NCBI GenBank assembly: GCA_973895155.1
Contig: OZ316894.1
Span: 4,240,944-4,304,943 of the forward strand
Origin: Marsupella aquatica
Taxonomy: Eukaryota > Plantae > Marchantiophyta
Length of the DNA stretch: 64,000 bases
Reading direction: 5' to 3'
The notes under the pieces are model-generated. The model did no database searches. It saw only the letters and a list, made by a program, of their open reading frames with translations, and was not told where the DNA came from. This document shows positions 38,901-64,000 of this stretch, in pieces. Numbering within the stretch: the first letter of the stretch is position 1; each line of letters begins with the position of its first letter. Made by a program: the position numbers and the translations under genes.

Positions 38901-41900
38901 CGCATTCTCGTTGATTAAGATTTGATCCTGCAGATTTGTTGAGGTTCTCAAACGAGACAGCCCAGAGAGGCCATCAGGCTCATCCAGTCCACTATAGATC
39001 GCCAGAAGAAATGTCACATCCTCATCGGCAAAAACTCCGCTGGTCTCCGCAGCAGGATTAAAGGACCCTGACTTTTCTCGCACATGAGTTTCAAAATAGA
39101 GTAGAGCACGCGCGTAAGCTTGACATCGGAAGGAAGCTCCAGCCAGTGCTTGCTTTGGAATTGCAGCTAGGAGCTGGATTACATTTTGCCGATGTAGGGT
39201 GGAAAGGTTGGAAACTTGCCTTGGCTCACTCTGATTTCCATTTGAGTTGTTGGCATTCGAGTTGTTTCCATTCGAGTTACCTCTACCTGATCCACCTGAA
39301 ACTTGCGGACTTTGACTTGTGCTTGGTTGTTTACAATCGTCCAGCCATTGGCCAAGATTATCAATTAAAGTGAAAACTGTCTGGGTGCTAACCTCACTTG
39401 GTCCTGACCCGCCCCTAGGCATAATGCCAGGCCCATTCTCTAGACCAGTGAGAGATGGTGTACTGCTTGTAGCGGCTGCTTCAGCGAGTACGGCTAGGAT
39501 TTCATCAGTTACCGATTTCCTTGGCTCAACAGATCCATCACAAACAACATTGAGGACTAGATAAGGCAGGAGGTAGAGGGCCGTACCCATGTCATGCCTC
39601 ACAACACTTGTACAAGCTATGAATATCTCCGCCCTTTGCCCAGTTGATTGACATATAAGGCGGCGAGTCCACAAATACATCCATCTTCGAAAGGACATGC
39701 CTGGTCGGAAAATTGGACCGTCAGGTGTGGATGCTCCTGATTTTTTGAGGAAATACTTTGACGTCAAACAAGGCGTGATAATCTCTTTTACATCATCTGT
39801 GAATCTTCGCCAGAATTGTTCTCCAGTATCGGCCATGGTGTTTGCATCCGCTCCTGTTGTGTTCATGACCTTTGATGTCTTGGATGACCCACCTCTCGCT
39901 CTCACTGAAGTGTTAGTAGTTTCTTGTGCCCTAACTAGAAGAAGGGCCTGACAGCCACTAAATTTCAGAAGCTCCTGAATTGCAAGTGCTGCTGCATCTT
40001 GAATATCTGTGTCTGTAGCAGCCCTCAGAACCCTTGCCAGATGATCGTTGATTAGCTCAAAAACCAGGTCCTCATTACTCCGTTCAATTCTCGACTGGTG
40101 CCTTAAATGTACCTGCAAATTGTGGCCTAATCATCGTAAAAAAATTGCCCAAGGGAAGGATTGCCACGATTCTCAAATACAGCAAAAGAAGGGGTGAGTA
40201 GGGGAGCAGGTTCCCAGTGAAACATATCCATTAATATCGAATCTTGGTACGCTTGGTTTGAAGGATGGCGACCAACTCCCTAAGAACTCTCAACCAAAAC
40301 TAAGCTAATTTAAGAACATTATGGGCCCTTGCGTTATATCAGAATATGAGCCGGTTCTCAGGTTTCCAACTAAGCTCGTTTTTCAAAAGATTTAAAAAAC
40401 TAATGAATCGGAGTAACTTGAACTGTGGTAATAAAACCAGAATTTTAAGAGGCAGGCTTTGGGAAACACGATGCCTTAAATATACCTGCAATTTGACTGG
40501 GTCCACAGCTCCCAGCTCTCCCAAACACTCTGCACACGCCAGTTTTAATCTCTGGCTCATAGCCGTGCGTGACTCTTCAGCGCATCCTCTCAACAAGGCT
40601 GTCACTAGATTGCTTACAACATTCACATCCATGGCCGACTCCCCTGCCAACATAGTCGTCATGTCCGTTCTCTGTGCTTGCATGACTTTGCGAAGTTCAC
40701 TGCCAGTCATATAACGAACACTCATACTCTCATGCGTAAGTCCATCTGCCACTCGTCTTAGTTGATCACGGAGACAGAGAGATCCCCGCGCTTTTTGGAG
40801 GACGGCATTCACCTGACTTAGAGATGGAAGACTGGGGAGAATTGGGAGCTCATGAGCCTGATCCTCCAAAAATGAACCATTTTTCAGTACTAGTTCCTCC
40901 AAGACCTCTACAACTGCTGTTTGCTCCTCTTCTTGACCTTCCAAGCATGGCATAAGAGCAACAACAATCTGGCTGGCGACATTCTTTGCACTTGCAGGTG
41001 AGGTTCGCACCAACGTGCGTACAAATGAGAGCCACACTTTCAAACCTGCAACTTGGAGAGGTGCATCTTGCAATGCACGCGTAAGGAGAGCCATGATTTT
41101 AGGCACAAACGCGCTGAGATGAGGCCCAATCATTTCCACTAAGCGCTCAATACAACGAAGGGCCTGCTTCTGAGAGATCACATCTTCAGCCCGTAGTAAC
41201 TTCCGATCAATACTATTCAAAAGCCCGACAAAATGGCCCCTCAAAAATGTGGGAAGATCATCTGAACCTGTGACAATACTAGCCACTTCTTTAATCATTG
41301 GTGCCACCCTTTCGGACCTTCGCTGAGCATCCTCGTCGTCCGTGTCCCCAAGGAAACGCACCAGTTCATCTAGAAGAGCTGGTAGTACTGCTGTAAATAT
41401 TTCACGAGGATCCGAGCACGTCTGCATTTCATAGAATTGCAAAGCTGCCATTAACTCTGTGCCGTCCGCTCTAAGGAGCAAAACCGATAGAACCTTATGA
41501 CACCACTCTAACAATAATAGAGGAAGATCAATGTTGAGTTGCTTTGCAAGTTCATGCAACGTGTCCAGAGCTTGTTGACTATGCTGTTGATTGAGTACAA
41601 GCTTTGGCAGGACGTCTGGGACCATTTGCTTGAGAAGATCCTGAAAAGCAATCCCAAGGACAGCCTCAGCAAACTCCTGAATCATGACCGGCCGGGAAAG
41701 AAGGCGATTGATCAAGTACTCAAAGAGCTCTTCCCTAACAGAGTCCAGTATAGACTGGAACTTATGAGCCCCAGCTTTTTGTGACGTCATGGAGCCAATT
41801 CCATGAATCAACTTCACACTTTTCATACGGAGTGAGAGGTCTTTGCAGTCGAGCTGCTCCACAAGAAGAACCAGTGAGAAGAACAACAGTTGCCGATTGT

Positions 41901-44703
41901 GATGGGAAACATTTGCAACTTCAGCAATTGTTTCTATCAAAGTGTCTACGACATCTGGATCGTGGGTTGTAGTTAGCGCATGCTTCAGTTTTCCAAGCAT
42001 TTGGAGCTCATGGTTAGCTTCACTGTCATCAGCATTCCCTCCAAAAATTCCAGCGAGAACGTGTGCTTTGGTGAAGAACTTGATTTGTGAACAAAAGGCC
42101 TCTCTCACATCCCGACGTCGATGAACGGGTAGCATGCCCAGACACTCAAGCCATGAAGTTTTGGTCATGGCAATTTCATCTGGTGTTGAGTGCTGTAGTA
42201 ATTGTGACATACAGCCTATGAAGGATACCTGGACATGCTCCGAAGTCTCTTTGAAGAGAAGGTCATTGAAAAGGTGCTGCCAGAGGACAAGAGGGGAAAA
42301 ATAATCTTGTCTTTCTCTCGGGCCACTTAAAGTGATAACGTTCTGACCAGTAGACTCTCTATCATTGCACAAAGAGCAGACAAAGTTAGGTTTCAGCTCC
42401 CCTCCTTTGTATCCTCCCGCCATTCCAGTGATTTGATCTCGTTCAGGAAATTTTGAAAAAAAGAGAGAATTATGAAGGCAAGCCATGACCCCAACGATAG
42501 CAGCAACAGCATCTCGAACTTGCTCTGCATCATCCCTTCCAAGATTTCCAAGTGTTTCACAAAACCGTCGTACAATTGCAGGAGTTGTCCACTGCACAAA
42601 GCTCGGAATGGCTGCAACTGCTGCAGCTCGGACCCTGTCGTCACCATCTCGGAGAGCTTGTCTCGAAATATTCTCAAGTCTCAAGTCCTCCATATCTCCT
42701 GCTATTCTTGAAGCAATCCAAACCGCACAGCTTTTTGATCTTCTTGTGATAGTTTCTTGGCCAGGTTGTAAAGTAGACCAAGGAAGCAATAATACATCCT
42801 TCATTACATGTAAGTGCTCAGATGTGCCAAGGAAACGCTGCTGCTGGACATTTGGCACAGGGTCACTCCCGGCTTCATTGCTTTGTTCATGCTCAGACAA
42901 CACTCTTTCCACAGTTTCCAAAAACATGGACAGCTGCAACTCTGATAGACTTCCTTCTTGTGCCTTACTATGAATCCAAGGCAACCAATGATGAAGGAGT
43001 TGGGTCAATTGCCTGTGACACACAGTCCCCGAGTATGCACCGAACATTTGTACAAGAACAGATAAACCGGTAAGCTTCCCTTCAATGTCTGAGTTTGCTT
43101 CCAATTCTGTGGAAGGGGCTAGATCTATCATAAGGCGTAAGGCTTCCTTTTGTGCCTTTGCTGCAGGTGACACCGTGTCTCGACTGTCAAACTTGGAGGA
43201 TGAGCCACTGCTTTGAGGAGAGATCTCATTTATGAGCAAGTCTATCATTGAGGGAATTTGCACATTTTCCATGGACGAGTCTTTGCTGGCATGCTCAGCA
43301 TTTAGTGGCTCCTTATTTGTCATGTCTTGCTTCCTGCTGATACTCTGCCTCCGGCGCTTAGCTGGTCTGCTTTCGGTCTCCTGACTGTGTTGAGTTTCGT
43401 GCGTTACAATAGAATCTCCTGACACCGATGGCGAGGATGGTCCCTCTCCACCTTCAATCATTTTACCATGAAGGTGAAGTGGGTCTGTGCCGTCAAAATC
43501 TGTAATTTTTCCCGCCACCTTTGTTGTACCCAGTAATTTCATCGCCATTTGTAGGCTACAGCCAAGCGATGGGCCTATTCCTGGAATTTTTATTAAATCC
43601 AAGATTGATGACAAAATTGATGCATACGATGGACACTGCTTGAGAATCAGAGAGAGAATTTTGAACATGACTACTTTCAGGTCTCGGCTGGGACTTTGCT
43701 TCACAGTTTGTGCCATCACATCACAGAAAGCTTGGGCAACACACTCGATCGTTCCACTTTGACAAGAGGAACACAAGGAAAAGAGACAGGCCCCAAGAGC
43801 TGAATCAAATGTAGCCGTTCTAAAAGGAAGAAGATCACCGCCACTAAATGATAAAATGTTAATTAGTGACATGATTAGCCTCTCACTTGGAAATGTCTCC
43901 ATATCCATGACTGATGTTGCTATACAAATGAAGTCAAAGCACGCCATTTGCAGAACGGAATTTCCATAGCACATCAGTACACCCACTGCTGAAATCAAGG
44001 ACTCTGTTAAGAGGCCTTCTACATGAAGTGCTCCCTCCTGAAGACAGCGCCCCAGCAACTTGACCGTCCACTCAGCTAGGGGCTGCCATGATACCTGCCC
44101 ATTAACGTCTATTACAAGCCCTTGATTCTTGTCAAGCATCCCAGCGGCAGCAGTTCTGCAGTCTTTCAAACTTGATAGCCCAGAGTACGCTCTCAAATAG
44201 GACTGAACAGACAAGTTTGGGCCTGTTGGGACGGCATTGGAACTTGCATAGAACGATGCAATAGATACCAAATCTTGAACAAGAATCATGCCATCCATGA
44301 ACATTTTTTGATAAGTCTTACATTCGCCAGCTCGCAATAGGGCCATGAAGGCTGCCCAAGTCTCAAAAAGTCCTTCATGGCAAGCCCTCAGCTCCCATTC
44401 TGCGAATAGCGGGATTATATAACTCAGGATAGGAAGAACTGACCGTCCTTCTCCGTTGTAGAAGACGCCAGGGTAGTGCTTCACCATCATGCGCAAAAGT
44501 TTCAAAATCGCTAGGAGTTCTCGCTCCTTCACTTTGCCTCGCACAAAGGAGCGTTCCAGTAGAGTTGGCAGCACCGAACGGAAACGAGACTCCACAGCAT
44601 CGTCCTCATCGTGCTGCGTGCTTCCTGTAATATCTCCTTTATTGGCGATGCGGTCGCCCAAATCCTGGAGGAGGACGAATAGGTCTGCCATCCCTTCCCT
44701 CAT
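35913..44703 (-). CDS. ATR: Serine/threonine kinase ATR (PIKK family), 2 exons: 44703-40486 and 40112-35913
   Basis: HEAT/UME region, FAT (AYARALLYFE), kinase (LCKPKDDLRKDARMMEF, GLGDRHGENIL, HVDFSCLF) and FATC end NLSKMYIWWMPWF. One in-frame GT-AG intron at 40485-40113. Confidence 0.96.
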
Positions 44704-45580
44704 CCCAATGCTCCTCTTACTGACTACGTTACATCCTTGCAGTGAGGTCTCTCTCCAATTTTATTTTCAATTCGGTCACCCATATTCTGGTGATGTGCAC
44801 AGAGGTCTGCCATTCCCATGCCTCATCCCAATTCTCCTCTTCCGAATTGCTCTACATCCAGCAACTGTTGCAATAAACCCTTAACCCGAAAGGCCCTTCA
44901 CCTTTACTGGTGATTTCGTCACCCAAATCTTAGTGAAACGTAAACAAATCGGCGGTTCTTTCCCTCGTCCCATGCTCCTCTTCCACAACGTGCTACATCC
45001 ACCGATTCTTCAGCTCAACCCTAAACCCTAAACCCCTCCACCTTTACTGTCAATTCCGTAACGCAACTTGTAGACAAGAACAACTCGATCCTCCATGCTT
45101 TACCTTGTACCAATGCTCCTCTTTCAAACTGTGCTACAGTCAGCCGGTTCTTGCAGCTAAACCTAACCTCCTTCGATTTACCAGCAATTCGATCACCCAA
45201 ATCCTCCAAGAAGTACTAGTAGATCTGCCATCCTTTTCCGCATCTCAACGCTCCTCTTCCACAGTGTGGTTACCTCCACCACATTGCACTCCCACTTGGC
45301 AATTCGGTCACAGCGATACTAGAATATTTGGCATCATTCTCTCGTCGCAATACCCTCAACATTGCCCAGTTCTTGCCGGAAAACCTCAACCCTTCACCAA
45401 ATTCGGAAGAACCAGAAATTGCTCTCCCATTCTTTCCCTCATCCCCGTGCTATATCTCCAAGCTCCTGCCATAAATCGTCAACCCTCAAGCCATCCTTAC
45501 TGGAATATCGGTCATCCAGATCATGGAGAAGTACGAATAGATCTGCCCTCCCTGCCATCATCCTAAAATGTGCTACAACA
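44645..45580. repeat. Degenerate tandem copies (about 7-8, ~120-140 bp) of the ATR start-codon region
   Basis: CGGTCGCCCAAATCCTGG..GGTCTGCCATCCCTTCCCTCATCCCAATGCTCCTCTT..TACATCC recurs with decay at about 44772, 44917, 45055, 45190, 45304, 45398 and 45509; one copy still translates as EDLGDRIA. Confidence 0.75.
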
Positions 45581-47170: not shown

Positions 47171-48335
47171 TACATATAGTTGACTATGGAGGTTTCCTAA
47201 GTCGCTTGTCAGGCTTAGGGAGCTTGAATTTAACCTTGGTGTAGTCACAGGGAGTGTGCTTTGGGACCCACAATCATCTTAACTAATTCAGGGAACCCAC
47301 TTTGTGCAGCAGAATTTGGCATGCAAGGTCATTTGGGTCAGGCATGGCCCTTTACAATTGCAAGTCAGGCTAGGTCCACCATAGGTCATAGTTTGACTCG
47401 TTGAAGGTCATGAAATTTGTCAGATGACCGGGGTCCTTCCCTACTGAAATTCAAGAAAAGGAGGCCCAGATGGACAGCTTCAAACATTGAGGTTTGCCTG
47501 GATAGCAATTTTCACACGAAAGATTAAAGAGTGCGCAATTGGCAATGCATGAAAGATGTCGTGCGCATAAACATCGCTACACAACATACATCGCTTGTCA
47601 CACATATCTAAGCATAGTCACAATCAACATTACAAACATAAGAGAATGGAGTACAAGTGGAACTCCTATCCACACATGTCCAAAACTCACAATAATCTTC
47701 AAGAATAATCGAACAACGATTGATGCCAATCAAACACACAATCTTGTCTGACGCGATCACACACTTATGTCAAGCCAAACGCACCTTGCGCCTCAAGGAA
47801 TCCACGTTACGTACACACAACCTAGACAGCCACACCATAGCCGCTAGAGTTTGTGCTCGAAAGGCTCAACATCAAAAGATGAGACCTTTGAGCCAACACA
47901 AAGAGATATATAACTATCCCTCACAAACATACACTAACCCTAAACCACTTAGATAACACACATATGAAAGCCTCAAACCTACATAGTCCGATATCCTATA
48001 CTACCACTCATAATGGTGTGACAGTTGTCGTGCGCATAAACATCGCTACACAACATACATCGCTTGTCACACATATCTAAGCATAGTCACAATCAACATT
48101 ACAAACATAAGAGAATGGAGTACAAGTGGAACTCCTATCCACACATGTCCAAAACTCACAATCGCCCCCCTAGCTGGGAGTGAGGTCCCCTAACTCTAGC
48201 TAGCCATAAGTTCTACAAGGTTGATATACACCTTTTTAAGTGTGGAGATCAGGAGGCCGGGTGCAAGTGAGCCCCATCGATCACCTTCCTGCAATCTATA
48301 CCTTCCATGAGAACACCAATGGTAACTAGTCGGCT

Positions 48336-50708
48336 TCACCGACATTGAGGACACAACCATGATCCACTAGGAATCACCTCTAATGGTGGTGTTAAACACG
48401 ACATGTGCCATCCTCTAGAACACTTATCACAAATCAACATAGTGGCTGCTCCTTGAGCAGATCCACACAACATACACTTCAAGCCGGCACGAACATGAGC
48501 CAAACTTGGATCTACAGTACCGTCAATGTTTGAAAGATGACATGGTGCACAATTGCGCACATGATCCTTCCAAACCATACCATCACGTCCTTCCAACATT
48601 AGGACACCAGAAGATAACACTTCACGCATACGTAAGATTTTCCGACCTGCGGTCACATCAAGTGTCGTGGGTGCTGTTTGCTGCAAATAAACAAAATCAC
48701 CAGGATGAAACCGTCGAATCCTCGCACGATAACCTCCTCCACGAATAGTGGCATACCTCAAAGTATCACGATGTTGGGCAATGGCAAGGTTGTCAAAGGC
48801 CATGGGCATGACTCTCTTGAAAACTCGTGCCCTTTCTGAACACACCTTGACCCAAACATCGGGATCGTCCAAATCCACAACAATTGCCACATCACGACGA
48901 ATAGCCGCTGGCAAATCTGGCTCTCTACCATAGAGCAAGAAATAAGGTGAGAAGGATGCAAGTGATGCTTGTCGACTAAAACGGTAGCCCATAGCTAACC
49001 AAGGTAGCTGGAGATCCCAATCTCCCAAATGACCAACCTGCAAGCCATACTTACGCAATCCTCTCTTCACGGTTTGTACAACTCTCTCTGCCAATCCATC
49101 TGCTTCAGGATGATCACGAGAAGTAGTACGAGGATCAATAAGAGCTTTCTCACACAAACCCTCAAACTCTCCACGAAATTTCGTACCCTGATCAATCAAC
49201 ACCTCAGCTGGTGCTCCAAAATGACTGAGTACTCGATCCAAAAATGTGATAGCCACTCCTCCACTAGCTTTATCTGGCAATGCCACTAGTTCAATCCACT
49301 TGGAGAAGTGCTCCACCATAACCAAAATATATCGATTATGACGTTGGGTAAGAGGTAATGGACCAGCAAAGTCCAAACTCCATCGATATCCCAAACCCAT
49401 TATCGATAGTGGATGCAATTGGGGAGTGGGAGCATTGAACGATGCTCGCACTCGATCACATACCACACACTTAGCAATCAATTGTTGGACCTCAGTGCGC
49501 ATACCACGCCACCAATACTGTGTCTGCAACAAGCTATATGTGCGTTTCACACCAAAGTGACCCAACTCCTCGTGCGCATGTCGCACCAAACGTACTCGTT
49601 GTGACGGTTTTGGTACAACCAACACCTTGCCATCACGTAGTATCCTCAAAAGATGGTTTCCTTCCCATCGAAACCTCTTGGCTCGTTGTAGAACCCTATC
49701 TCGCTCCTTAGCATCACAATTGCCAACAATGGAGCCACCACGCAAATATTCCAACACTCTTTTGTCGTTATGAATATCTTGCTGCCCAAAAACTACCTCA
49801 TCAACATCCATATCTGAAGACTCAACGTCTACCCCATCCAATGAAGTAGAGTCCATAGATCCACTATATGTTGGAACCCAACAAAGAAAGGCAGATGCAT
49901 GCCATCCTGGCACACTCTCCTTATCCGACCCATCATGCCATCGAGCTCCAGTCTCATCCTCTTGACTGGTACATGGATTACGGCTCAACCCATCCGCATC
50001 CAAGTTCACTTTACCAGGCCTATGTACAACCTGGAAATCATACTCTTGTAACAACAATGCCCATCGTGCAAGCTTTCCTGTAAGCTTGTTAGACTCCATT
50101 AACCACTTGAGGGGCTGGTGATCAGTGATCAAGGTGAACAGATTACCAAACAAATAGCAACGGAAATGTGCCACAGCCCACACAGCTGCCAAACACTCTC
50201 CCTCATACGAGCTATATTTAGCCTCTGCTGAATTGTTTGATCTACTGGCATATGCCACAACAAACTCATTCCCCTCATCATCCTTCTGAGTCAGCACTGT
50301 TCCAAGTCCTACTCCACTCCAATCAGTGTGTAGTTGAAATGGTCGTCCCGAAACGGGTCTTCTCAAAATAGGTGTTGACGCCAATCTTTCCTTCAATTCT
50401 TGGAAAGCATGCTCTTGGTCGTCACCCCAAATCCACTCCTGGTCCAACTTAGTGAGTATAGTTAAAGGTTTAGCAAGTTGGCTAAATCCTTTCACATACC
50501 GTCTATAATAGCTCGCCAATCCCAAGAATGCACGAACTCTACTCACATCAGTAGGACGAGGAATTTGTGTAATGGCCTCCACCTTAGTCTCTTGCACACC
50601 CAATCCTCCTGGGTAGATAGTGTGGCCCAAATACTCAATTTTGTCTTGGAAGAACTTACATTTGCCAGGATGGAGTTTCAATCCATGTTCTCTCAATCTC
50701 TCCAACAC
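48336..50708 (-). pseudogene. Pol C-terminal part: RT thumb, RNase H, DDE integrase, C-terminal PHD finger
   Basis: FLGLASYYRRY, LHTDWS, YEGECLA, TDHQPL, HEELGH..CVVC, WSLDFAGP, DQG, GLAER; PHD CMLC..CDKC..WHMSC..WLCPQC. Separated from the RT core by an in-frame TAG. Confidence 0.92.
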
Positions 50709-50711
50709 AAT

Positions 50712-51416
50712 CTACAAGTGTCTTTGATGTTCTTCCACAGTCGAAGAATAGACCAAAATATCATCAATGTAACATCTCACAAAATCCAAACCTGCAAGAA
50801 TTCGATCCATAACTCTTTGGAATTCAGCTGGTGCATTCTTCAACCCAAATGGTAAGAACAACCACTGATACAAACGATCTTTGCCATAAGAATCAATTCC
50901 CCAAAATGTTGTCTTGGATCTATCCGAATGCCTAATTGGCAATTGATGGTACCCCGCCTTGAGGTCCAACGAACTAAATATCTTTGCATGCCCCACAACA
51001 TCAAAGATCTCCTCCGGTGTTGGCATGGCATATCGATCAGATTTTGTCTGACGATTAATAGGTCGATAATCACCACACATTCGCCTATCTGTGTAATTGC
51101 CATGCACATCCTTCTTGGCTGGCATCACTGTGGCAGATGCATACTCCCCGTATGAGATCTCCACCAAACCAGCCTCCAACAAATCCTGAGTTCTACTCTG
51201 GATCAAAGCCCTCTCCATGTCACTATACCGATACGGTCGTCGAAAGATTGGCGCATCACTAGCCAATTCGATCTGAATACCAGGACCCTTCAATGTCCCC
51301 AAATCCTTCATACTAAATGCAAAACAATTCCAATAACTCTTCAAGAATTGATGCATGCAACGTCTCTCCCTCCCGGTCAACTTAGGACCAATCTGTGGTT
51401 CCCAACTCTCCATCAA
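50712..51416 (-). pseudogene. Reverse transcriptase core (Ty3/gypsy type)
   Basis: RMCGDYRPIN, LDLKAGYHQ, LPFGLKNAPAEFQR, YIDDILVYS. Confidence 0.95.
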
Positions 51417-51419
51417 AGC

Positions 51420-51590
51420 TGTGACATCTTCCTTTGGAGTTGAAGAGTCACAAGCCGCGGGCTGTGACTCTCCTTCAAAGTTGTGACGTCTTCCGTTGGA
51501 GTTGAAGAGGCCACAAGCCGTGGGCTGTGACTCTCCATCAAAACTGTGACGTCTTCCTTTGGAGATGAAGAGGCCACAAGCCGTGGGCTA
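51420..51590 (-). repeat. Three 57-bp (19-codon) repeats in the DNMT-RT linker
   Basis: CACAGCCCACGGCTTGTGGCCTCTTCA..GAAGACGTCACA occurs 3 times; the third copy has a 1-bp deletion that shifts the frame. Confidence 0.85.
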
Positions 51591-51779
51591 TGGATGGAAG
51601 AGTCAGTCGCTCGTTGTTATTTATCAATAGTTTGAGCAACCTCCTTCTGCTCAACAATATGTTCTACCTTGGCCAATCTTGCCATAGGTCCATCAATCAT
51701 CTGCTCGCCCCCAGCTGTGGCCGCTACTGTCTCGATAGGCCGCAAGCTCACCAATGGACGATCTGTAACATTAGAAGTG

Positions 51780-52770
51780 CGCATTCGCAATTGTTCAGCT
51801 AATTCCAAGCTGATAATCCAAGTCAAGCAATTCAAATCCATGGCTTGACCAAGGACTTGACAACGTGAATGCTCCGACACCGAGGCCACTGTAGTGGTGC
51901 TAGTCAAAAATCCCATAGTCCGCTCTCTCTCATTAGCGGTAGGCTCTACTAGTCGTTGTAGAGCTGTATCCCACACAAGTCCAGGGCCACCTGCTCGAAA
52001 TGCGTATGAAGCAGAATGGCTCACAAAAGTGGGTAATGCACAACGCGGACGCCCAACAATATTCACCACTGCCAATGGGGTTCGATCAGATTGGGTAACA
52101 CTTTATGCATGACGCCCTGGATCCAAAATACTATCCACCACTAAGGTTGCTGAGCGAGGTACACCATCAAATGCTCGCTTTAAGACCTCACATGGTAACA
52201 AGTTAGTCCACCATAATCGTGGACAATGGGCACGAGAACCCACACATGCAGCATCCAATAACACAGCAGGTCCAATCCAAGATCGAACCTGATGAACACT
52301 AGCAACAATTCGATGACGATCATCACCCAATAATGGGACATTCTCCAAAATGTATGCAGGAGAATGTGTCTGATGCATCTGGAGATGGCGCAACACACGT
52401 AATATCTCCCAAAATAATGCAGATCTTGGATCATGAAATCCATGTCCAATTCCAGCCCGAGATTGACCCTGACATGGCCAACCCGCAATCACCAAATCAA
52501 TGGGGCCAACACGATCCAAATAATCCACCCCCAATAATGAAATATCAGTAGGCAATGCATGCTGATAACCACAAACGGCATCCACTGGCAACAAATGTGG
52601 ATAACGTTCCACCAACATCGCTACATGACGTAGTGAGATCCTCCGTGTTATCTCATCATTTTCCACGTACAAGTAACGACGCACAGGAATTCCTGCTTGA
52701 AGAATAGCAGCCAATCCAGTGCTAATCCCACCAAATAAATGCAACAAACAAATACCCTCCTCTGGATACT
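51780..52770 (-). pseudogene. C5 cytosine DNA methyltransferase domain (DNMT3/DRM-like motifs) inside the retroelement polyprotein
   Basis: Motif I LHLFGGI, II YVENDE, IV DLVIAGWPCQ, SALFWE, VI ILENV, VIII RLWWTNL, IX EPTANERERTMGF, X VLGQAMD. One in-frame TAA at 52103-52105. Confidence 0.9.
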
Positions 52771-53199
52771 GCCACACAATAGGAGTGGTATCCAATGGTG
52801 AAAGGGTCACCGGTCCATCTGCAAAAGATTGTTGTGCTCTTGACTCCGGTGTAAAAGCATGACGCCAGGCATCATGTATCAATTGGGTCGCATTTTGTTG
52901 CAAGGCCTCTCCAGTACCCCATACTGGTGCCACAATGGTATCAACAGGTAATACACCCATCATGTGTTCCTCACGTGGCTCCTCCATTGCCGGAACATCT
53001 GTTGCATGTGCATTACCTTCAATCAACTCATCAGATCCAGTAATCAAACTACTGAATGCTGCCAAAGACAATGGTGCAGATTTAGGACCTCCCACAGGTC
53101 CACTAAATCGCACTGGCAATTGGCTCAATCGAGCATCTCTAGATTGCCAATCGGGTCGATACGACACCGACTCATCCCAAAAATCAAGAACAAATCCCA

Positions 53200-55515
53200 T
53201 AGGATAAAGTACTGTACATCATACGACTCAACCTTAGTCAAAATAGCTTGAGCCTGGATCCGTGAGTTATCCTTTGGATGATCCTCTCGAATCCTAAGTT
53301 CAAGTGCTCGTCTGGTGATATGTTGTTTGGGTGTAGGTCCTCCCAATGAAGTCTGAATGGGAAAAGGACACTCCTCCAAATCATCTGGACACAATCCCAA
53401 TCCTTGTATCGCAGACTTACCCAACATCAAGGGCTGAGCACCAGTATCCAATAACACTCGTTCTGGCTGGTATATTGCTCCAAAAGGCCCAACTAATCGG
53501 AAGATACCACTCCGATTATCCAATGATACCACACTAGGTTTAAACCTAGTTCTCTCATAGGCAGGGCGTGCTGGTAACTCCATCAACCTCGCCGTTGCTG
53601 CTGGCCATGTTTCACCACTAGCAATAGGTGGAATCAACTCCACAACTTCAGATTTATGCATTGTCTCTGCACGAGAAGCAACAACTGGAGTGTCTTCACA
53701 TAATGTGGCCGCCAATCTGAACACTTCAGCTGGACTAACTCCCAATGCTAATATATCTGTTGCTGAAAATAACGGGGTGTGCACAATGTTAGTGGCCGCC
53801 CCCAACAAGGTACTTGCTAGACCTGCTGCAACATCATCCGATTTTACCGACTTATCAACACTTGGATTTGTCTTAACCGGGTTCATAGAGGTAGTGTGAA
53901 CTGCCTCTAACAACGTAAACGATTGAGGAAGCTTTGTTTGTTGACGAGCCTCCCCCCTTTGAGGATCCAACTCTACCATTGCTCCTCGGGGCTCAAGGAC
54001 TTTGGTTGCTCCTCTAGTCAAAGCTGCCGATGCGTCAACATGGGTAGTGCCACACATGAATCCCATGGTGGCCAAGTCTCCGTCAGCTCCATAAGATGTA
54101 GAAGCTCCATCACCAGAAGTAGGTCTAACCTGAGAACTGGCCATGGCAGCTAGTTGTTGCTCCAATTGAGCAATCTTTGCATCTTTTGGATCTATGGTAG
54201 TGGCAAGAGCATCACCTTGTTGTCTCCCTGCATGTGGCATCCCTCGTCCACGACCACCACCTCTACCTCCTCTTCCCTGATCATATGTACGCGATCCTCC
54301 CCGTCGTAGTTCAGGATGGAGTACAAAACACCTATCTTTGGTGTGACCAGAAACTCCACAATGATCACATAATCGTTGATCGGGCATAGATGCCCCTCTA
54401 CTATCCGGGCAATATCTTTGTGCATGATCCCCACCACAAGTCCAACATCCTGACTGCTGTCCAGCATAGGAGGGCACAGGTCTCTGACTAGTAGATTCCC
54501 GTGTTGTAGGCTTCTCCCTCTGGCTCTTCCTTACAGTAGGTTGCAGTGTGGGTGTAGATGCAACCTTTGGTGAGCCTTCCTTGACAAATCCGGAAGTCAC
54601 CACCTTCTCATTCACCATATTGAGCTCAATGCGCTCGGCTAGTGCAAAAACAATAGCCAATGTGGGATCTGAATCCCTCAATAGAGTGGCGTCTCTTACT
54701 CTACGCCGCAACTCTCTATCCAAAATTGCATACCAAAATTGAATTGCTTGGGCCTCTGTCACTCCCTTGGTGATTGTAATTAATCTTTGCATATGAGTGT
54801 ATGCCTCGCGTAGACTCTCTCCAGTCTTGCGCTGAAAATCTTGAAGACCCTTCAACTTATCAGTTCTCACACCCTGGTAGTTTTGCTTCAACACATCAAA
54901 GAACTTCACCACAGGGTTAAATGTTGGCACAACTCCACTCCCACCCACAATTGCACTGGTAGGAGTAACAGTGGATACTGGTGGAGTGCCACTCTGGCTA
55001 GTGCTACTAGAAGAAGCAACAGCCGGGGCAACAGGTTGAGAAACCGCACTTGTGCCGTAAGTGATGGACACATAGTTTGGTGACCAATGTTGTCTCCATA
55101 TCTCAATATCAGCCAAATGGGTCTTCCGAAACTCATGGTAATCATCCATGGGTGGACCCTCCAAATGCTGAAACAACCCTTTCCATGCCATGAAAGGTGT
55201 AAACAATGTGGCGTTACCCATCGTTTGCATATCACACCACGTATCAAACTCTTGGATGAAATCATCCAAATCAATTGTGCCAACTGCACCAGAGTATCTT
55301 CTAGGGCCCTTAGTGGACCCATACGTCTCCTCCATATCCCACAACAATGGTGCAACTACCTGATGATGAGGAGAGTTGACTACAGAGCCCTCGTAATCAC
55401 TATCTGAAGCTCTACTAGTATCTGCTAGCAATGTCGTTGGCCGAAATTGCACTCCACTTCGAGTGAAACCAGTCCGTTGTTCACCAAGTAGCTTTGCATT
55501 ATTGGAAGACTCCAT
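53200..55515 (-). pseudogene. Gag with two CCHC zinc knuckles and an RGG tract, followed by an aspartic protease
   Basis: FQRKTGESLREAY, CWTCGGDHAQRYC, CDHCGVSGHTKDRC, VLLDTGAQ; frameshift at about 53215 near the protease C-terminus. Confidence 0.9.
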
Positions 55516-55529
55516 GATTCCAAAACCCT

Positions 55530-55952
55530 AGGCCACAGGCCGTGGGCTGTGGGTACCTACCCACACAAACAAGATGAATCAGCCACAAGCCGTGTGCTGT
55601 GGGTGACTACCCACGCAACCAAACTTCAAGAGGCCACAGGCCGTGGGCTGTGGGTGCCAACCCACACAACCAAGATGAATCGGCCACAAGCCGTGGGCTG
55701 TGGGTGACTACCCACGCAACCAAACTACAAGAGGCCACAGGCCATGGGCTGTGGGTGCCAACCCACACAACCAAGATGAATCGGCCACAAGCCGTGGGCT
55801 GTGGGTGACTACCCACGCAACCAAACTACAAGAGGCCACAGGCCGTGGGCTATGGGTGCCAACCCACACAACCAAACTATGAGAGGCCACAGGCCGTGGG
55901 CTGTGGGTGCTAGCCAAGCTGCAAGAGGTCACAGGCCGTGGGCTGTGGGTGC
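55530..55952. repeat. Hairpin-forming tandem array in the retroelement 5' leader (9 units of ~50 bp, 101-bp higher-order repeat)
   Basis: GCCACA(A/G)GCCGTGGGCTGTGGGT at about 55531, 55582, 55632, 55682, 55733, 55783, 55834, 55885 and 55927, with two alternating spacer types. Confidence 0.92.
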
Positions 55953-58900
55953 CTCCCCACCAAAACTCTCTTTGCTCAAGTCATGCGCTAAACACGCAAT
56001 TGACGGGAAAATCACTATTCAGTATTTGTCGTTTCCTCTGTGCCCTAAGTCACAGCCGCCTTGCCTCTCCGCGGTGCCTTATCTTGTCGCGCGCCGCCAA
56101 CACAATTCACCAACATTCAACGTCGTTTCCTTCATAGAAACGCACTATCCATCAACAAGGAACTTGATGCAAATCAGAACTGCATCCTACAAAAATTGTA
56201 AACATAATCAACTATCGGGCTCCCAATTGAACCACCTCAATCAAAACCACAAAGAGTCGCACATCCGACTACTTTCCCTTCACAAAATAGGACCAGACAC
56301 CATCGTCTGTCTCACACACAATTGTCGATAGCAACATTCGCTTGTCGATCACACAATCAATCCTCCACGATGCAACACCGCATATCGATGAAGACCGCAA
56401 CTCCAAAACCACAACTTAGCAACAACAACTTGAAGCTTCACTTGAACTACGCAAGCGTCGCACCAACTTGCAATAGATCGAGATACCAGCGATCCGTTCA
56501 ATAACAACACCCGATCCGAGCTACCACGAATCGTCAACAACAAAACCAAAATGAAATCAAACTTCTGTCTGCACAGTCCGCACCACAGAGTTCGAAGCTG
56601 ATCTTTTGATGTAATCTTCAAGAATAATCGAACAACGATTGATGCCAATCAAACACACAATCTTGTCCGACGCGATCACACACTTATGTCAAGCCAAACG
56701 CACCTTGCGCCTCAAGGAATCCACGTTACGTACACACAACCTAGACAGCCACACCATAGCCGCTAGAGTTTGTGCTCGAAAGGCTCAACATCAAAAGATG
56801 AGGCCTTTGAGCCAACACAAAGAGATATATAACTATCCCTCACAAACATACACTAACCCTAAACCACTTAGATAACACACATATGAAAGCCTCAAACCTA
56901 CATAGTCCGATATCCTATACTACCACTCATAATGGTGTGACAAAGATCATATTTTCAAGCTTAATTTTCTGCAACTGTTCAACATCTCAAGGCCCACTTA
57001 GTTTGCTTGGAAGGCCATCAAATGAACTTTCCAATAGACCAATGTTTGCTTGATGCTGATCACAAATGGAAACATTACCAGTGCCAGAAGCGGGACTCTA
57101 AAGCAGCAAGGGCCACCCAATCGCATCTTTAGGGGCAACATCCATCCAAGCATACATTTGCTTGATGGGGTTGTTTTTCTTTGTGATTCTCAGAACCACA
57201 AGGTGTGAGGTATGTTTATGGTGTTGGCTCAAAGGTTGTCCCCAACCATAATGACCTTGCCAGCCTGGCCAGGGGTTCCCAAGTCTCAAATTTTCAAAAT
57301 CTTACTTATAAAGCGCCAAGGGGAAGATAGAGTCAGGGTCTAGGTTTCTAGATTGAAGTCTCTAGACATGACTCTAGGGCCCCACCAAAGAAAATGTGCA
57401 TAGAACAAAGATGTGCATCCACATGATTGAATATTATGTATGAAATAAATGAGAGTATATGTGCATGTAAAGAAAATATGGATACACATTATGGAATATT
57501 ATGTATGACATGAATTATTGTTTTCTAATCATTTCATTAATATTTAAATAATGGAAATAAGAAATATATATTGTTATATTTTATTGTCCTCTTCTCTACT
57601 CACCTTTTGTTATACTTTATTGTCCTCTTTCCTACTCTCCTTCAAAGAAGGGGTAGTCAGGCTAATGTTATCTAAAGAAAGAGTGTCAAGGGTTTTGCTG
57701 AGTGTCAGGGGTTATGCTTGCTCGCCCATGGTTTGTTAATGGACCATGGCTGTAAACCCTTCTAGCTTGCCGCCCTTGGGCATTACAGACAGTTACCCCC
57801 TCCAGGCCATGGGTTAAGCTACACTTACATGATTGTTCTACACCAGAAGATCACTCTTGTGCAGGAATTTTGTTTATCTCCTTGCACCTCGTCTGGAAGG
57901 GAATTCATTTCCACATGATAATTCTCCACTAAGCTGAAAGGCCCATGGACGTTACATAACTCTGCACACTGTTCTCCATCAAGAGCTGGACACCTCTTGA
58001 CTCTGCCCTGAATGTTGTTGCTCTGCAGAAAAGAAATTGATTTCCCATCCCAACTCATCTTAACGGGAAACGGGAAAATTGTTTCCATTAGTTCTTGGAT
58101 TGAGAAAGTAACACTCATGAAAATTAAGCATAATAGATGACAACATTTGCGGGTATTCTTGCATCTTGGAGAATGTGTCACCTTTGCAGGAATCAGGATA
58201 CACAGGGTTGTTGAGTACCCAAGCCCACAATATGAATCTATGAATCTATCTATCTTCGATAACTATATAATAGCAATCAAAAGCTACTCAATCAAAAGCT
58301 ACTCCCTGGGCCTACTACAATGGACATAAAACTGAAACTGTAGACAAGAAACAGGGATGGGGGCAAAGATGAACCGAAAATAGCATGGAGTCCTGTTCAA
58401 GGAATGATAATCAGGCTATTAATTACAAAAGCCAACCCATACCTGTCAGTTTGGACCAAGAGCCAAACCATCCTGTCAGTTTCGACCAAAGAAAAGAGAA
58501 AGGGAACCCCAAATGCAGAAACTGCTTATAGATTCGACTACGAATCTAGCACAGGTCCCACTACTTCAATGACTTCGTCATACTTGCCATACACTGAGTT
58601 GGCTTGAAAAGCGAAGCGAAACTGGGAAGTCATCACTGTAAAATCGAGCCCTCATCATTGCATTGGTGCATCTCTTTGCTCAATCAGGCGGACCACAAGG
58701 TCAAGCGCCAACAAGGACTAGCAGTGAAATGCTAAGACATCCATACTGCAAGAAGATACTGGAAGAGAGTATTGAAAGCGGTAGGTAACTTCAATGTGTG
58801 GTAAAGTATCTACAACTGGTGCAAAGACCATCAGGAGCAGCAAGTTACAATCAGATGGAAACCTTAAGAGAGTTCTCTATCCTGAACTGCAAGAACGCAA

Positions 58901-59605: not shown

Positions 59606-62600
59606 TTAAGATCTGACGCTTTTAGTGAAGTACTTCAGCACCAACCAGAATAGCACTCTGTAACCCAAGAAGAGCAAAATCATGGACAAGACGTTGATCC
59701 ATTGATGTACGGCCCCAGCAGAGAACGAAATAAGGATATCCTCTGAAGAACCTGCGCTGCCCCACTGAACATTGGCAAATTTTGGGTTTCCGAACTCGTT
59801 ATCCATCATAGACTCGAACGGGTACTTGAAGAGTGAGAGATAATGCAGCCAGATCCAATACTTCGGAATTCCGCTCCTGTTCAAAGATAACACGTATCCG
59901 TCATAATCTGCACTTTTGTAAAACATCGAATGAACTAACACGCCTCTTCTCTCCCCCTGCATAAACCACCCTACCGACTGGCAAGACTCTCATACTACAG
60001 GAAGACTAATTCGTGCAGGATCAAATGAACAATGAAGCCAACGGATCCCCTCCCTGGGACACCCATATCCAGCAATGCTGCTACACGAAGACCTGTCGAA
60101 AAATGAATGAAACTGATGTATTAAAAAATTGTGGGAATAACCCTACCTTGGGATGAAGAAACCGGAGAACAGGAAGAAGTACGCAATGAGACCAGAGCAC
60201 ATGGAATTGCCGATTGTGAAATTAGGGACCATCGAACTGATGAAGCATACGAATGAGTTGGCCGAGGCAAGAGTGAGCCATACAATGAGGACGAACAAGA
60301 AGAATGCCCCGGTGTCCGCAACCAAGCCCACGATGAAGTAGCCAGGGATAGAGAAGAGAAACGCCAGAATAAGCAAGAGCGGGACGGTGACGACTGCTCC
60401 GGAAATCACATAAGTAGCCGCTCGATACGCTCCACGTGACGTTTCTCGAATGAAAATCTGACGCTCCTCAATGAAAACGCCAATTGCCTCGGTGGATGTA
60501 AAGATCAGCAAAGCCAGCGCGAAGGCAATGAACGACGACCGCTGTTTCACTCCCTTGGCACTCACCTTAACTCTTAAGAAAAGTGTTCCAACCGTGACTG
60601 CCACAACCATCTGCGGACACATATTCACCCAAAAGTAAGTTAAAGGATGTTTTCAAGTCAGGCTTCTCTCCCTTTTAGTATACTTCAGATCCTTCCGGTC
60701 TTTGCTCCAACCTGAGTGCTTCGTTTCTGTCGCCAGGAAGCTCATTACTTCCAAGTCAATGGCAGGCGTCTAATTGCAGCCCCCTTATCATGTGTACGAT
60801 TGCCTATCGGCATGGCTTGGATTTGAGTACTTACTTCGACTCTGTCCCACAGGGAAAAGATTTCAAAGTGAAGTGCTCAAATTCTGTGTGCAGGAAATTG
60901 TTTTAGAGAAGTGTTTAAATTAAGCAAACAGGGAAAATATTTCAGAAAGTGCAAGTAATTCCGAGCTCAGGAGATTGTGTGCGCGAGGTAAAGTCAAGGA
61001 AACGCTTCTCTGGAAGCACGGTGCTTGTGAATTGATCATCCAATACCCTCTGCTGCAATTTGAGTCCTTAAAAGTCGGTGGGCGGGATTACTAAATTGTT
61101 TAAATTCTGTGGGCAGGAAGGTTTAAGTGAAAGTCGAGGGTATACAGCACGCTCGCAACGACGACAGAACAGTCAACAACGACCGACGATCAAGTCTTCA
61201 AGAGAGGAATAGCTAAGCAGTAAGCATGACCCCCTTCACGTCATCAAGATGTTTGAAAGCGAAAGCTGAATGAAACCTTCTACGTCGGAATAACTGAGGA
61301 CAGGAGGGCACTGACCATCAAAAATACTCGGGAAAGGAACAGCTCCGGGGTGCGAAGTGTGTTCTTCAAGTTCCGATTCGACAGCACGAGACACTCTGAG
61401 AAAAAGGATGTTGCATACTCCGGAGAAAAAGCTCCAACTATGTTAACTTCTTCTGGAGAGTTCTCCCTCGCTTTCTCCTCATCCATGATCTTCTTGTTTG
61501 ACGCCTGTGACACCAAACCAAACCATTCCCTCACTCCGGTCAGAAATATTGCCCTGGAGTCGTATCAAGTACGTGTATCCCCAAATTCTGCAAAGATTTC
61601 AAGCACGAATTAAATTCCTCACTCAAAAGAAGTAGAGTCGAGTCAATAGTCATACTTGTAACGCTTTAAGGGGTTCGAGGCCCTCAGGCGATCGTTGGTA
61701 ATCCTCAATGGTGTCGAGAGCGTGCTCGATGACGTTAACCTGCAGTGAGACGAGACCAAAATCACAGCATCAGAAAAACCGTGCTGCTAAATGGGCAGCT
61801 GGGGCCGGCCCTGATTAGCGGAATCTTGATCAAAATGAGGCTAAACTGAGAAGATTTCTGACCGCGTTTTTCAACATTCACTCGAATTAGCATAAATTGA
61901 GATGAGGAGGGCAGCGAAAGGACGGGCAGGGAAGGGGAGATCACCATCTCAGGCATGGGGCGACCGAGAGGGTCGAAGAAATGTTTGATTCCTAGGTGAG
62001 GTCCATGGTAGATGACATTCCCCCTTCCCAGGACAAGAACTCTATCAATAGTTTCCAGAATTCGGTAGCTGGGCTGATGGATGGTGAGAAGCACAGTCCT
62101 CCTTCCCGATTGCGCCATTCTCCTCAGGTTCTGCATGACATTTAGAGCAGATGTGCTGTCCAGCCCAGACGTTGGCTCGTCCAGGAAAAGAACAGCGGGG
62201 TCGTGAATGAGATCGGACCCAATGGACACCCGACGCCTCTCTCCACCTGAAACTCCTCTAACCTATATGACGTGCACATCCAACACGGAACGATCAGCTG
62301 CCTAGTATTGATCCGATAAGATGGGAAGCGAAGTGATAATCATGACAGCACCCTCGTTTATTTGCTCTCCACAAACATCAAGATGGCATTGCACAACGAC
62401 ACCCCCCCTTGAGGCTAAACCATAATGTCCAATTACGTGGCCACTCAAGTCATAATTATGAATCACGCCCCCTTCCATTCTATTTCCTCCATCAACGACA
62501 ACATGACATTGCAAGCTAAAGGCACTGTCTGAACTGTGTTGTCCAATGAAGTCGTTGGCATCTTGCATCATGTCCTCCTCCTTTCTTCGTTCTCCAAGCA

Positions 62601-64000
62601 CATCGAAATGAGTTCGCTTAGACAGTAAGATCTATCTAGTCCTCTTCCTTTCTTCATCCTCAAGCTGCAGAAACTTAACGTCTATGGAGGGTTGATATGG
62701 AGATCGAGTGTTGATAGACTTGATCAAGTACTTCATTTTGAGGTATCTCCGCTGGACTTGACCTCCATTGACTTGACTGGAGTATCAGCTCAGTAACATG
62801 CATTTCATCTTCCCTCATAATTCATTCGTTAAAGCAAAGAAAAAAAAAAAGCCAGACATGGAGGAGGAAGAGGCGAGATTCCCAGACTGAATGCGAAACA
62901 AGATTGAAAACGACACAACTCTTAACCGCAATTTAGCATAAACTCAACGCAGAGGTTGACAAGAAGCCCAACCCAGCGCCCTCATGAAGCAGCACAGACT
63001 GCAGAAGAAATTCGACGAACCTTCTCATTTCCAACGCGAGTGTCAGCGCATTGCGCAAGGCCGAGCTGCTTGATCATATTGTCCACCCGAATCTTCTTCT
63101 CCGCGAGGGGCATAGAGCTGGCCAGCCTGAGACGCGCGCTGTACAGCAGGGTCTCTCGGACGGTGAGCATGGGGAAGAGGGCGTCATCCTGCATCACGTA
63201 ACCCGAGATACGCTTGAACGAACTGTCAATCATCTCACCATTCACCAAGACGTCTCCCTCCAAACTCTTGCTTGATACACGTCCCGCCAAGGCATCAAGA
63301 AACGTGGTCTTCCCTGATCCGGAAGGCCCGACGATGGCAAGGATCTGCCCGTGGTAGGCCTCGGCATTGACGCCGTTCAAAAGCAATTTCTGTGTGGTTC
63401 CCTCGTTAGTAGTCACAGACACCTGCAGCACCACTTCTTAATTTAGATAGTGCTCAAATTTCTCGACTCAGACGGCTTTTGTCACGAACGGGACGACTGC
63501 AAGACATCAGAGCAACATTTCTTGACTTCATTGGTTTCCATTGTGGGAGGGAACGACAACTAGACATCTGACCCCACTAGTCCCAATTCTGAGCTCCTGG
63601 AGCACCATTTTCTTGAATTAGATGGTTTTCATTGTGGAACAAAACGACTGCAACACATTGTCACCCCACCCAACCCAACAGTTAAAAAAATTCTTCCAGC
63701 CGGATGGTTGTCCTCACTACCCCCCGCATTAATCATCAGAACTTGAAATCTGAGAAAGGCTTGATCAACAGAGAGTACGCCCATTCAGTAGGATGAGGTC
63801 AGGGGATGGCATCAGCTGAGACGGGAGAAGGAGGGAAAGACCTTGTAAGTCAAATCCTTCACAACGATGTCGTAGAAGGGGAGCATCTCCACTTGTCCAC
63901 CGGCAGCCAGGACATCTAGGACAGACACGGAGTTCTGGCTGCCGAATTTCCCCAGACTGATACTAGACCTCCTGGCCTGAGAGGCGCTCCGGGAGGCGCT
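59606..64000 (-). CDS. ABCG half-size ABC transporter, paralog of 30278-34477; 5' end lies beyond the window
   Basis: [77 protein letters not shown]; intron positions match the + strand copy. Confidence 0.92.

Follow-up and report, generated by a model that had tools for sequence, protein, structure and literature searches.

A predicted DNMT3-like methyltransferase and permuted terminal repeats in a decayed Ty3/Gypsy retrotransposon of the liverwort Marsupella aquatica

Introduction

What does a retrotransposon do with a cytosine methyltransferase of its own, and how is its DNA inserted when its terminal repeats are not arranged as in ordinary retrovirus-type elements? Both questions are raised by a locus of the liverwort Marsupella aquatica, within a 64,000-nucleotide stretch of contig OZ316894.1 (assembly GCA_973895155.1, positions 4,240,944 to 4,304,943), here called the window, whose own numbering is used throughout. 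The role of retrotransposon-borne methyltransferases has been open since 2018, when they were known only from dinoflagellates and one alga. The element described here occupies 56942-47557 on the minus strand (9,386 bp) and is longer than the interval 48336..55515 assigned to it in the original prediction, which had been made from the sequence alone and did not mention the permuted repeats, the probable self-priming or the predicted internal integrase sites. The reading advanced, which we regard as probable though well short of certain, is that the locus is a decayed copy of a Ty3/Gypsy element whose Gag-protease protein ends in a DNMT3-like domain and whose repeats are permuted, that such elements likely insert after end-joining followed by an internal cut, and that the methyltransferase likely methylates new DNA.

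Architecture of the element

Pfam matches, together with motif reading, place Gag, protease (PR), DNA methyltransferase (DNMT), reverse transcriptase (RT), RNase H (RH), integrase (INT) and a PHD finger in this order on the minus strand, from 55515 to 48336. The matches to DNA_methylase (5e-12, about 52501-52310) and PHD (5e-11, 48476-48342) are accompanied by RVT_1, RT_RNaseH, Integrase_H2C2 and rve; the Gag CCHC knuckle is at 54369, the protease LLDTGA at 53454, and the integrase combines an H2C2 zinc finger with a D-35-E core (D-E spacing, 35). The domains named in the original prediction, with the ordered methyltransferase motifs (FGG, GWPCQ, ENV, RLWWTN and the motif-X region) and the PHD finger closing the integrase, were all confirmed at their place and on the minus strand.

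Gag followed by PR-RT-RH-INT with a DDE integrase, and TG..CA termini with a target duplication in the 4-6-bp range (4 bp in all four whole elements, the window copy included), are the features of Ty3/Gypsy elements (Metaviridae). What departs from that family is the ends. Instead of two complete matching long terminal repeats (LTRs) with a polypurine tract (PPT) directly before the 3' LTR, the layout is A-internal-B-A-B with the PPT before the first B, and the element works like a Gypsy element with permuted LTRs. A chromodomain after the integrase, a chromovirus trait, gave no Pfam match in the element, which has the PHD finger instead. Identity with Troyka was considered and rejected, as Troyka requires CG..CG termini and a 3-bp duplication (available text of PMC12440569), against TG..CA and 4 bp here.

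Gag, PR and DNMT are encoded in a first open reading frame (ORF1, 51617..55515), broken in the window copy near 53,220 and at 52105-52103; RT, RNase H, integrase and PHD are encoded in ORF2 (48336..51616), with a stop at 50714-50712. The two frameshifts (near 53,220 and between 51,619 and about 51,400) and the three in-frame stops counted earlier are all present, but the third stop, at 51619-51617, is conserved in the family, as detailed below, and is not a sign of decay. The frameshifts and the two remaining stops, together with substitutions that set DNMT motifs I and VIII apart from those of the family, mark the window copy as a dead, decayed element.

The methyltransferase domain

The C5 cytosine methyltransferase domain (51800..52768) was typed from profile, fold and motifs. 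DNMT3A was its best match (1e-8), and a profile of 14 relatives gave 1e-20 for DNMT3A, compared with 6e-10 for the highest-scoring entry of DRM type and 4e-9 for HhaI. The unbroken domain of a relative (locus L029) was modelled with a pLDDT of 87, and the fold matches listed for it were DNMT3A, DNMT3B and DNMT3C only (TM 0.65-0.71). Profile and predicted fold together indicate that the element enzyme is DNMT3-like. An origin from a bacterial or phage neighbour was considered and rejected, the corresponding matches being short, 24-55% identical and outside the element clade in the tree; in the Atlas a streptophyte DNMT cluster scored 0.96, with phage clusters at the same score.

That the domain is part of the element and not a neighbour, as first proposed, was borne out by DNMT matches in 63 longer relative proteins and by the pattern of substitution. 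All loci were collected by a DNMT search, so that the set holds DNMT-bearing members only; an integrase scan of viral contigs returned no loci. Of 14 aligned rows, 13-14 have catalytic motifs IV and VI unchanged, and both patterns are found in 134 of 172 DNMT-domain proteins, fragments counted. The ratio of nonsynonymous to synonymous substitution rates (dN/dS, Nei-Gojobori method) for the DNMT was 0.12-0.15 in seven pairs of the window copy with moss-like loci (dS 1.7-2.5), 0.26 between the window copy and the distant L029, and 0.07-0.12 in three pairs inside the L029 lineage. The corresponding RT values were 0.03-0.04 (three L029-lineage pairs) and 0.05-0.13 (the five unsaturated of the seven window pairs). 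With a dN/dS of 0.07-0.15, the DNMT appears to be under purifying selection, and it is supported as a conserved part of the family.

In the original prediction the enzyme was taken to be packaged in the particle and to methylate new cDNA or the insertion site. The best guess at its role is self-methylation of new element DNA, in which the enzyme would act on CG, including the CG that stands beside the terminal CA of B in 13 of the 17 B ends read. Several observations speak against an active enzyme with this target. The CG observed/expected ratio is 0.60 in the element and 0.57-0.67 in the rest of the window, so that CG depletion is at background and no footprint of self-methylation is seen; the DNMT dN/dS exceeds the RT value two- to threefold, with dS near saturation in the window DNMT pairs; a Volvox protein (P0134) has a DNMT without catalytic motif and keeps its PHD finger; and the isolated domain of Klebsormidium nitens gave no methylation in yeast, a result that its authors term inconclusive (available text of PMC5890265).

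The CG background and the yeast result are also what would be seen if the enzyme did not act on the complementary DNA (cDNA) but on host chromatin, on existing copies (as self-limitation, or to shield the chromosomal repeat junction described below from integrase), or as a nucleic-acid-binding part of the particle. This alternative is possible but doubtful. It would further agree with the production of the DNMT in ORF1, at the level of Gag, in the streptophyte-type clade, and with the fact that each inserted copy retains an intact junction that integrase could cut; it agrees poorly with the conservation of both catalytic motifs, and the fusion to Gag would put the enzyme in the particle, the very site of cDNA synthesis.

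The stop between methyltransferase and reverse transcriptase

The original prediction had joined all domains in one continuous Gag-to-PHD frame. This did not hold, since a conserved stop parts Gag-PR-DNMT from RT-RH-INT-PHD. The equivalent of the stop at 51619-51617 is present in 23 of the 24 loci scored, the window included (18 TAG, 5 TAA; one locus with a deletion at the site was excluded), with CAA or CAG invariably as the following codon; the 24th locus stops 12 nt upstream instead. In 20 of the 25 rows that include both domains, RT continues the frame of the DNMT, the intact loci L029 and L161 consist of two long ORFs split by this single stop, and a few deep-branching relatives carry DNMT and RT in one ORF. 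With the stop conserved and the frame kept, Gag-PR-DNMT is likely the major product. The DNMT ends this predicted abundant protein, with RT-RH-INT-PHD likely made by readthrough at the predicted signal formed by the stop and the following CAA (51611..51619).

TAG-CAR-YYA, a readthrough context, is found at the stop in L029, L030, L031 and L161, and the 120 nt 3' of the stop fold better than shuffles in five of seven sequences (z -2.4 to -4.0). Less favourable to readthrough are the occurrence of the CAR-YYA context in only three of the 23 stops scored, plus L161, the unremarkable fold of the other two of the seven sequences, and the count of compensatory pairs in the fold (0 of 33, in an alignment of four sequences only). 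The moss-like family, moreover, has TAG CAA CCC ATG, i.e. an ATG two codons past the stop, an arrangement that also permits reinitiation. Together with a Met just upstream of the RT homology in the window, this ATG is the evidence for production of Pol by reinitiation, or from a spliced or separate RNA, in place of readthrough. Such a route is judged unlikely, the window, L029, L030, L031 and L161 having no ATG at that place, the frame being maintained across the stop in most rows and the following codon being constantly CAA or CAG.

Two repeat arrays accompany these ORFs. The leader holds a tandem array of about 50-bp units (55518..55960), and a 63-bp tandem repeat (51387..51574) lies in the spacer before RT, in the zone of the copy-specific frameshift. 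The leader array and the repeat 3' of the ORF1 stop (51387-51605) share a motif, some 24 nt long, with a short hairpin fold.

Permuted repeats and their internal junction

In the window the layout is A1-internal-B1-2 bp-A2-B2. Repeat A1 (331 bp, 56612..56942) starts TGTCA; B1 (137 bp, 48026..48162) directly follows the PPT (48163..48175) and ends CGACA; A2 (47693..48023) and B2 (47557..47693), which ends CGACA at the outer 3' end, complete the element, and the same four bases flank it as a target-site duplication (56943..56946 and 47553..47556). Of 52 loci examined, three held both ends, and all three have the same layout with 4-bp duplications. The window pairs are identical at 329 of 331 (A1 and A2) and 137 of 137 positions (B1 and B2), and in the three other whole elements the A pairs are 88-92% and the B pairs 93-96% identical. 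From these figures each pair appears to be reset when the element inserts, and the similarity of B1 to B2, no lower than that of A1 to A2, fits the copying of both from one template in each cycle. B stands before A in none of the eight distinct 5' ends (window included), and five of the seven 3' ends of the moss-like family read B-A-B. The other two (L015 11734-11847 and L018 6944-7057), in which B is followed by unrelated DNA without A-B, do not conform; recombination between B1 and B2, a one-LTR circle or a mirror insertion would each yield such ends.

B1 and A2 meet in a pair of head-to-head sequences, CGACA-(2 bp)-TGTCA (48019..48030), predicted to be internal integrase sites. The spacer is of 2 bp in all 11 loci read, i.e. 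the window and ten others, and is GC in six; a 12-mer of this kind appeared anywhere in the region in 8-21 of 2000 shuffles. About a third to a half of the depth in the sequencing runs has GC at the window spacer as well, and most variants are those that cytosine deamination would give. Insertion ends pile up at the junction in the contigs of four runs, where 114 contigs stop at 48026 and 60 at 48025, the flanks agreeing poorly (0.36-0.43), and several of the contig pieces listed end at 48023. Nine chlorophyte-type loci give a mixed picture: two have the junction after the PPT and two, of one family, a variant of it, and the remaining five, several of which end too early, show no junction and so count against its generality. 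In L041 (1-1648) and L043 (9030-9909) an 824-bp unit lies directly past the PPT, with the variant junction 50 bp from the unit end (long B, short A). Two tandem units precede Gag in L041; a circle, a tandem copy or an artefact of assembly could each account for this.

Predicted priming signals

TATATA in A1 (56831-56826) is followed at 32 nt by a predicted 12-nt self-primer (A positions 144-155, 56799-56788), the exact complement of which, the predicted self-priming site, lies directly past A1 (56601..56612). The best complement among 209 control windows was of 9 nt. The moss-like family has complements of 17 (L024), 12 (L028) and 10 nt (L032), and further relatives of 13 (L161) and 16 nt (L029), the primer sequences differing among three lineages and the arrangement being the same; none was found in L162, a point against a general mechanism, and L030 and L045 end too early for the site to be read. 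From this complementarity the element likely self-primes. The PPT precedes B1 and not A2, and the A2/B2 join, in the window as in the moss-like family, runs from A, as far as the primer site, straight into B as it starts at the PPT, with exactly one A shared, as predicted for the right end joined to the left end of a reverse transcript.

A proposed replication and integration route

By taking into account the covarying complementarity, RNA synthesis would start about 32 nt past the TATA of A1, and the first 12 nt of the RNA would prime the minus strand just past A1. From the position of the PPT, the plus strand would start at B1, to give a linear product with an LTR made of B, the two spacer bases and A at both ends. 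The A end would then be joined to the B start, the join itself being visible as sequence, to yield a two-LTR circle or an end-to-end product. The DDE integrase may nick after CA on both strands of one CGACA-nn-TGTCA junction, leaving normal recessed CA ends with 2-nt overhangs and, on insertion, the 4-bp target duplication; opening of the junction beside the 5' side of the internal region would produce A-internal-B-A-B, which is the layout observed. The permuted layout is in keeping with a two-LTR circle that is opened by a cut staggered by 2 nt, and insertion as a DNA circle, rather than as the linear copy of ordinary retrovirus-type elements, appears likely from the repeats. The structure of the ends predicts that a retrovirus-type integrase routinely inserts end-joined DNA through a cut at an internal junction, a marginal route in retroviruses, and the scheme supplies an exact oligonucleotide substrate, a transcription start and a readthrough site for testing. 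In circle junctions of the IS3 family, a DDE enzyme cuts the internal palindrome of abutted ends. Integrases of foamy virus and HIV-1 cleave two-LTR circle junctions in vitro (available text of PMC1180852 and PMC1905944), but the retroviral junction, from the same sources, forms at the DNA ends as a side route, whereas that of the window element is passed on as part of the repeat, 137 bp away from where the DNA is predicted to end, and would serve as the usual route.

The same inserted structure is predicted if no closed circle is formed and RT jumps from the right end of the linear copy to its left end through the shared A and recopies B, integrase then bringing together two internal sites of a product that is linear or nicked. 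The single A shared at the A2/B2 join is as this would require, and a jump would help to explain the use of only one of two identical junctions (no mirror form among the eight 5' ends). Cutting by integrase at internal sites is nevertheless still needed, and the common 2-bp spacer is what a single staggered cut across one junction demands; an RT jump is considered improbable. Far less credible still is a split-repeat replication as in PAT or Ngaro elements, in which the RNA would span the element from A1 through B2, each B copy would derive from RNA, and self-primer and PPT would not be used as in LTR elements. The A-coding-B-A-B layout is indeed that of split-repeat DIRS elements (available text of PMC5890265), but no tyrosine recombinase, the trait of DIRS, PAT and Ngaro elements, is among the Pfam hits of the element, its D-35-E integrase is intact, and the TG..CA ends, the 4-bp duplications, the PPT at B1 and the covarying primer site at A1 all speak against it.

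For the circle route, methylation by the element's DNMT is a candidate reason why only one of the two identical junctions is opened. In its widest form, this would make circle integration the normal route of the green-lineage Gypsy clade, with the DNMT as the switch that chooses the junction. After strand displacement, one of the two identical internal junctions would carry its methylation on one strand and the second on the other, and the methylated CGACA of a B end would mimic the TGACA of an A end, so that integrase would open one junction and spare the chromosomal copy. If true, the captured methyltransferase would be tied to the repeat structure and the lack of mirror forms among the 5' ends explained. 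L162, with CG on both sides of its junction, is symmetric, and the Volvox relative has lost the catalytic motif; both argue against the switch, which we rate as a slender prospect.

The PHD finger

The PHD finger (48339..48485) was assigned from Pfam and from structural relatives, the best solved of which are those of CHD4, KMT2D, DPF3, ATXR5, KDM5B, PHF21A and UHRF1, most of them readers of unmodified histone H3 tails. The family finger has no tryptophan two positions before the zinc-binding histidine, the mark of H3K4me3 readers. It may bind unmodified H3 tails and would in this way steer insertion away from active promoters. Its dN/dS is 0.05-0.07 in two intact pairs; the values of 0.33-0.46 in four pairs of the window with moss-like loci count against the reading advanced. 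PHD fingers are a common accessory domain of green-algal elements (available text of PMC8557442 and PMC9940879; see also that of PMC6673714), and the Volvox relative keeps its PHD with a degenerate DNMT; for these reasons the PHD finger is no special partner of the DNMT. In Hariotina reticulata (P0350, residues 2403-2459) a weak Tudor-like match, under the Pfam cut-off, lies past the PHD.

Relatives and distribution

The named DNMT relatives are from Calypogeia fissa (71% identity), Marchantia polymorpha (70%), Sphagnum (67%) and Closterium (43%), one DNMT cluster is from Hariotina reticulata, and the integrase-PHD portion has 239 relatives, with Riccia, K. nitens and Volvox among the 120 listed. 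The lineage is old and widespread, because relatives are found in Marchantia, Calypogeia, Sphagnum, Closterium and Hariotina. Many of the M. polymorpha relatives are annotated as ordinary genes, and could confound counts of host DNMT3 genes; they also bring the question of function into a model plant with genetics. In the four runs thousands of contig variants are spread across the whole element and the family is therefore abundant in the host, contig depth not being used as a copy number.

Both trees were built by a quick method without bootstrap and were midpoint-rooted; that of the DNMT comprised 156 of 158 rows, without host DNMT3 or a named K. nitens DNMT, and that of the integrase 77 of 179. 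The element enzymes form one DNMT clade against 12 phage or bacterial rows. The window falls in a group of 27 rows with the named bryophyte proteins (support 99), nested in a group of 79 (support 96) in which nearly all rows end after the DNMT; a sister group of 47 rows that includes Hariotina and Volvox (support 99) has the DNMT between RNase H and integrase. In the integrase tree, the window and a K. nitens integrase-PHD protein are in one clade of 39 rows (support 99). The element's relatives by themselves would make a bryophyte the likely host.

Contigs L161 (1-9285) and L162 (1-13480), from two cyanobacterial genome bins, have the full anatomy of a eukaryote-type DNMT-Gypsy element and are likely eukaryotic contamination of the bins; UniRef lists one of the two as a cyanobacterial reverse transcriptase. 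Between Pol and PPT, two chlorophyte-type elements carry an additional ORF, of 713 codons in L162 (10033-12174; no Pfam match) and of 489 codons in L043 (7272-8741).

Relation to known systems

KnitGypsy-Dnmt3 of K. nitens (de Mendoza et al. 2018, available text of PMC5890265) is like the window element in being a Gypsy element with an intronless, unpermuted Dnmt3-like C5 domain under purifying selection and, by the legend of its Fig. 4c, in having DIRS-like A-coding-B-A-B repeats. It is reported for K. nitens only, as an acquisition of that alga, with the DNMT described as part of the Pol ORF. The window DNMT is in frame with Pol and ends Gag-PR before the conserved stop, a possible difference; deeper-branching relatives have one ORF. 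With the relatives described here, the range takes in liverworts, Sphagnum, Closterium and a chlorophyte clade in which the DNMT stands between RNase H and integrase. Self-priming, internal integrase sites, a repeat mechanism and a PHD finger do not appear in the available text of that report on KnitGypsy-Dnmt3, the words 'Marchantia' and 'PHD' being absent from its main text. Most likely the window element is the land-plant branch of KnitGypsy-Dnmt3. The combination of DNMT and Gypsy and the repeat layout have thus been reported once before, in an alga (same source); the additions are the land-plant and chlorophyte range, the placement of the DNMT at Gag level, set off from Pol by a conserved stop, the predicted self-priming and the predicted integrase sites within the repeat.

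Self-priming has been predicted from the sequence past the 5' repeat also for the Ty3/Gypsy elements Tf1/sushi and Tcn1, and elements of this type occur in mosses and club-mosses (available text of PMC6317226 and PMC2864245); they are, however, chromoviruses with ordinary paired LTRs and a chromodomain, in place of the PHD, DNMT and permuted repeats of the window element. Chlamydomonas Gypsy-7a_cRei (available text of PMC9940879) and REM1 (known from parts of citing papers) likewise encode a Gypsy polyprotein that includes a PHD finger, and their insertions are over-represented between genes. A figure legend for Gypsy-7a_cRei names LTR subparts and may describe the same repeat layout, but no methyltransferase is among the domains listed and no repeat mechanism is given in the available text. 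SymbioDIRS-Dnmt3 (available text of PMC5890265) likewise carries a cytosine methyltransferase, but as a DIRS element uses a tyrosine recombinase. EpiLTRs (available text of 10.64898/2026.05.21.726589) combine a cytosine methyltransferase with a chromatin reader, as here, but differ in having a DNMT4-related domain, a DAM domain and a chromodomain. The same preprint and Sarre 2025 (PMC12344493), in their available text, mention elements like the present one in 'streptophytes', and supplementary trees may include bryophyte sequences; the available text of PMC9985172 and PMC10952607 makes no mention of them. The original prediction named no characterised land-plant example, and the literature searched contained no land-plant description and no mechanism for the repeats; Repbase reports, the REM1 paper, Craig's thesis and subscription journals lay outside its scope and could hold either.

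Other features of the window

An unusually intron-poor ATR kinase gene (35916-44760, minus strand), with UME, HEAT, FAT, PI3K and FATC domains, is carried in two open stretches, one of 1,473 and one of 1,405 codons, with some 210 bp between them, the element lying 2.8 kb upstream of the first. Pieces of a DNA polymerase phi gene (Pol5/MYBBP1A-like) are at 6070-9009 (minus strand), and a small Copia-type remnant (3088-5277) has a gag match (3518-4408) flanked by direct repeats of 159 bp with 99% identity. Segments that lie some 30 kb from each other, 32326-32588 and 62002-62264 as well as 30581-30624 and 63840-63883, are 73-78% similar in inverted orientation; an ABC-2 membrane match is found at 59606-59989 (minus strand), and the inverted similarity possibly represents inverted transporter paralogues.

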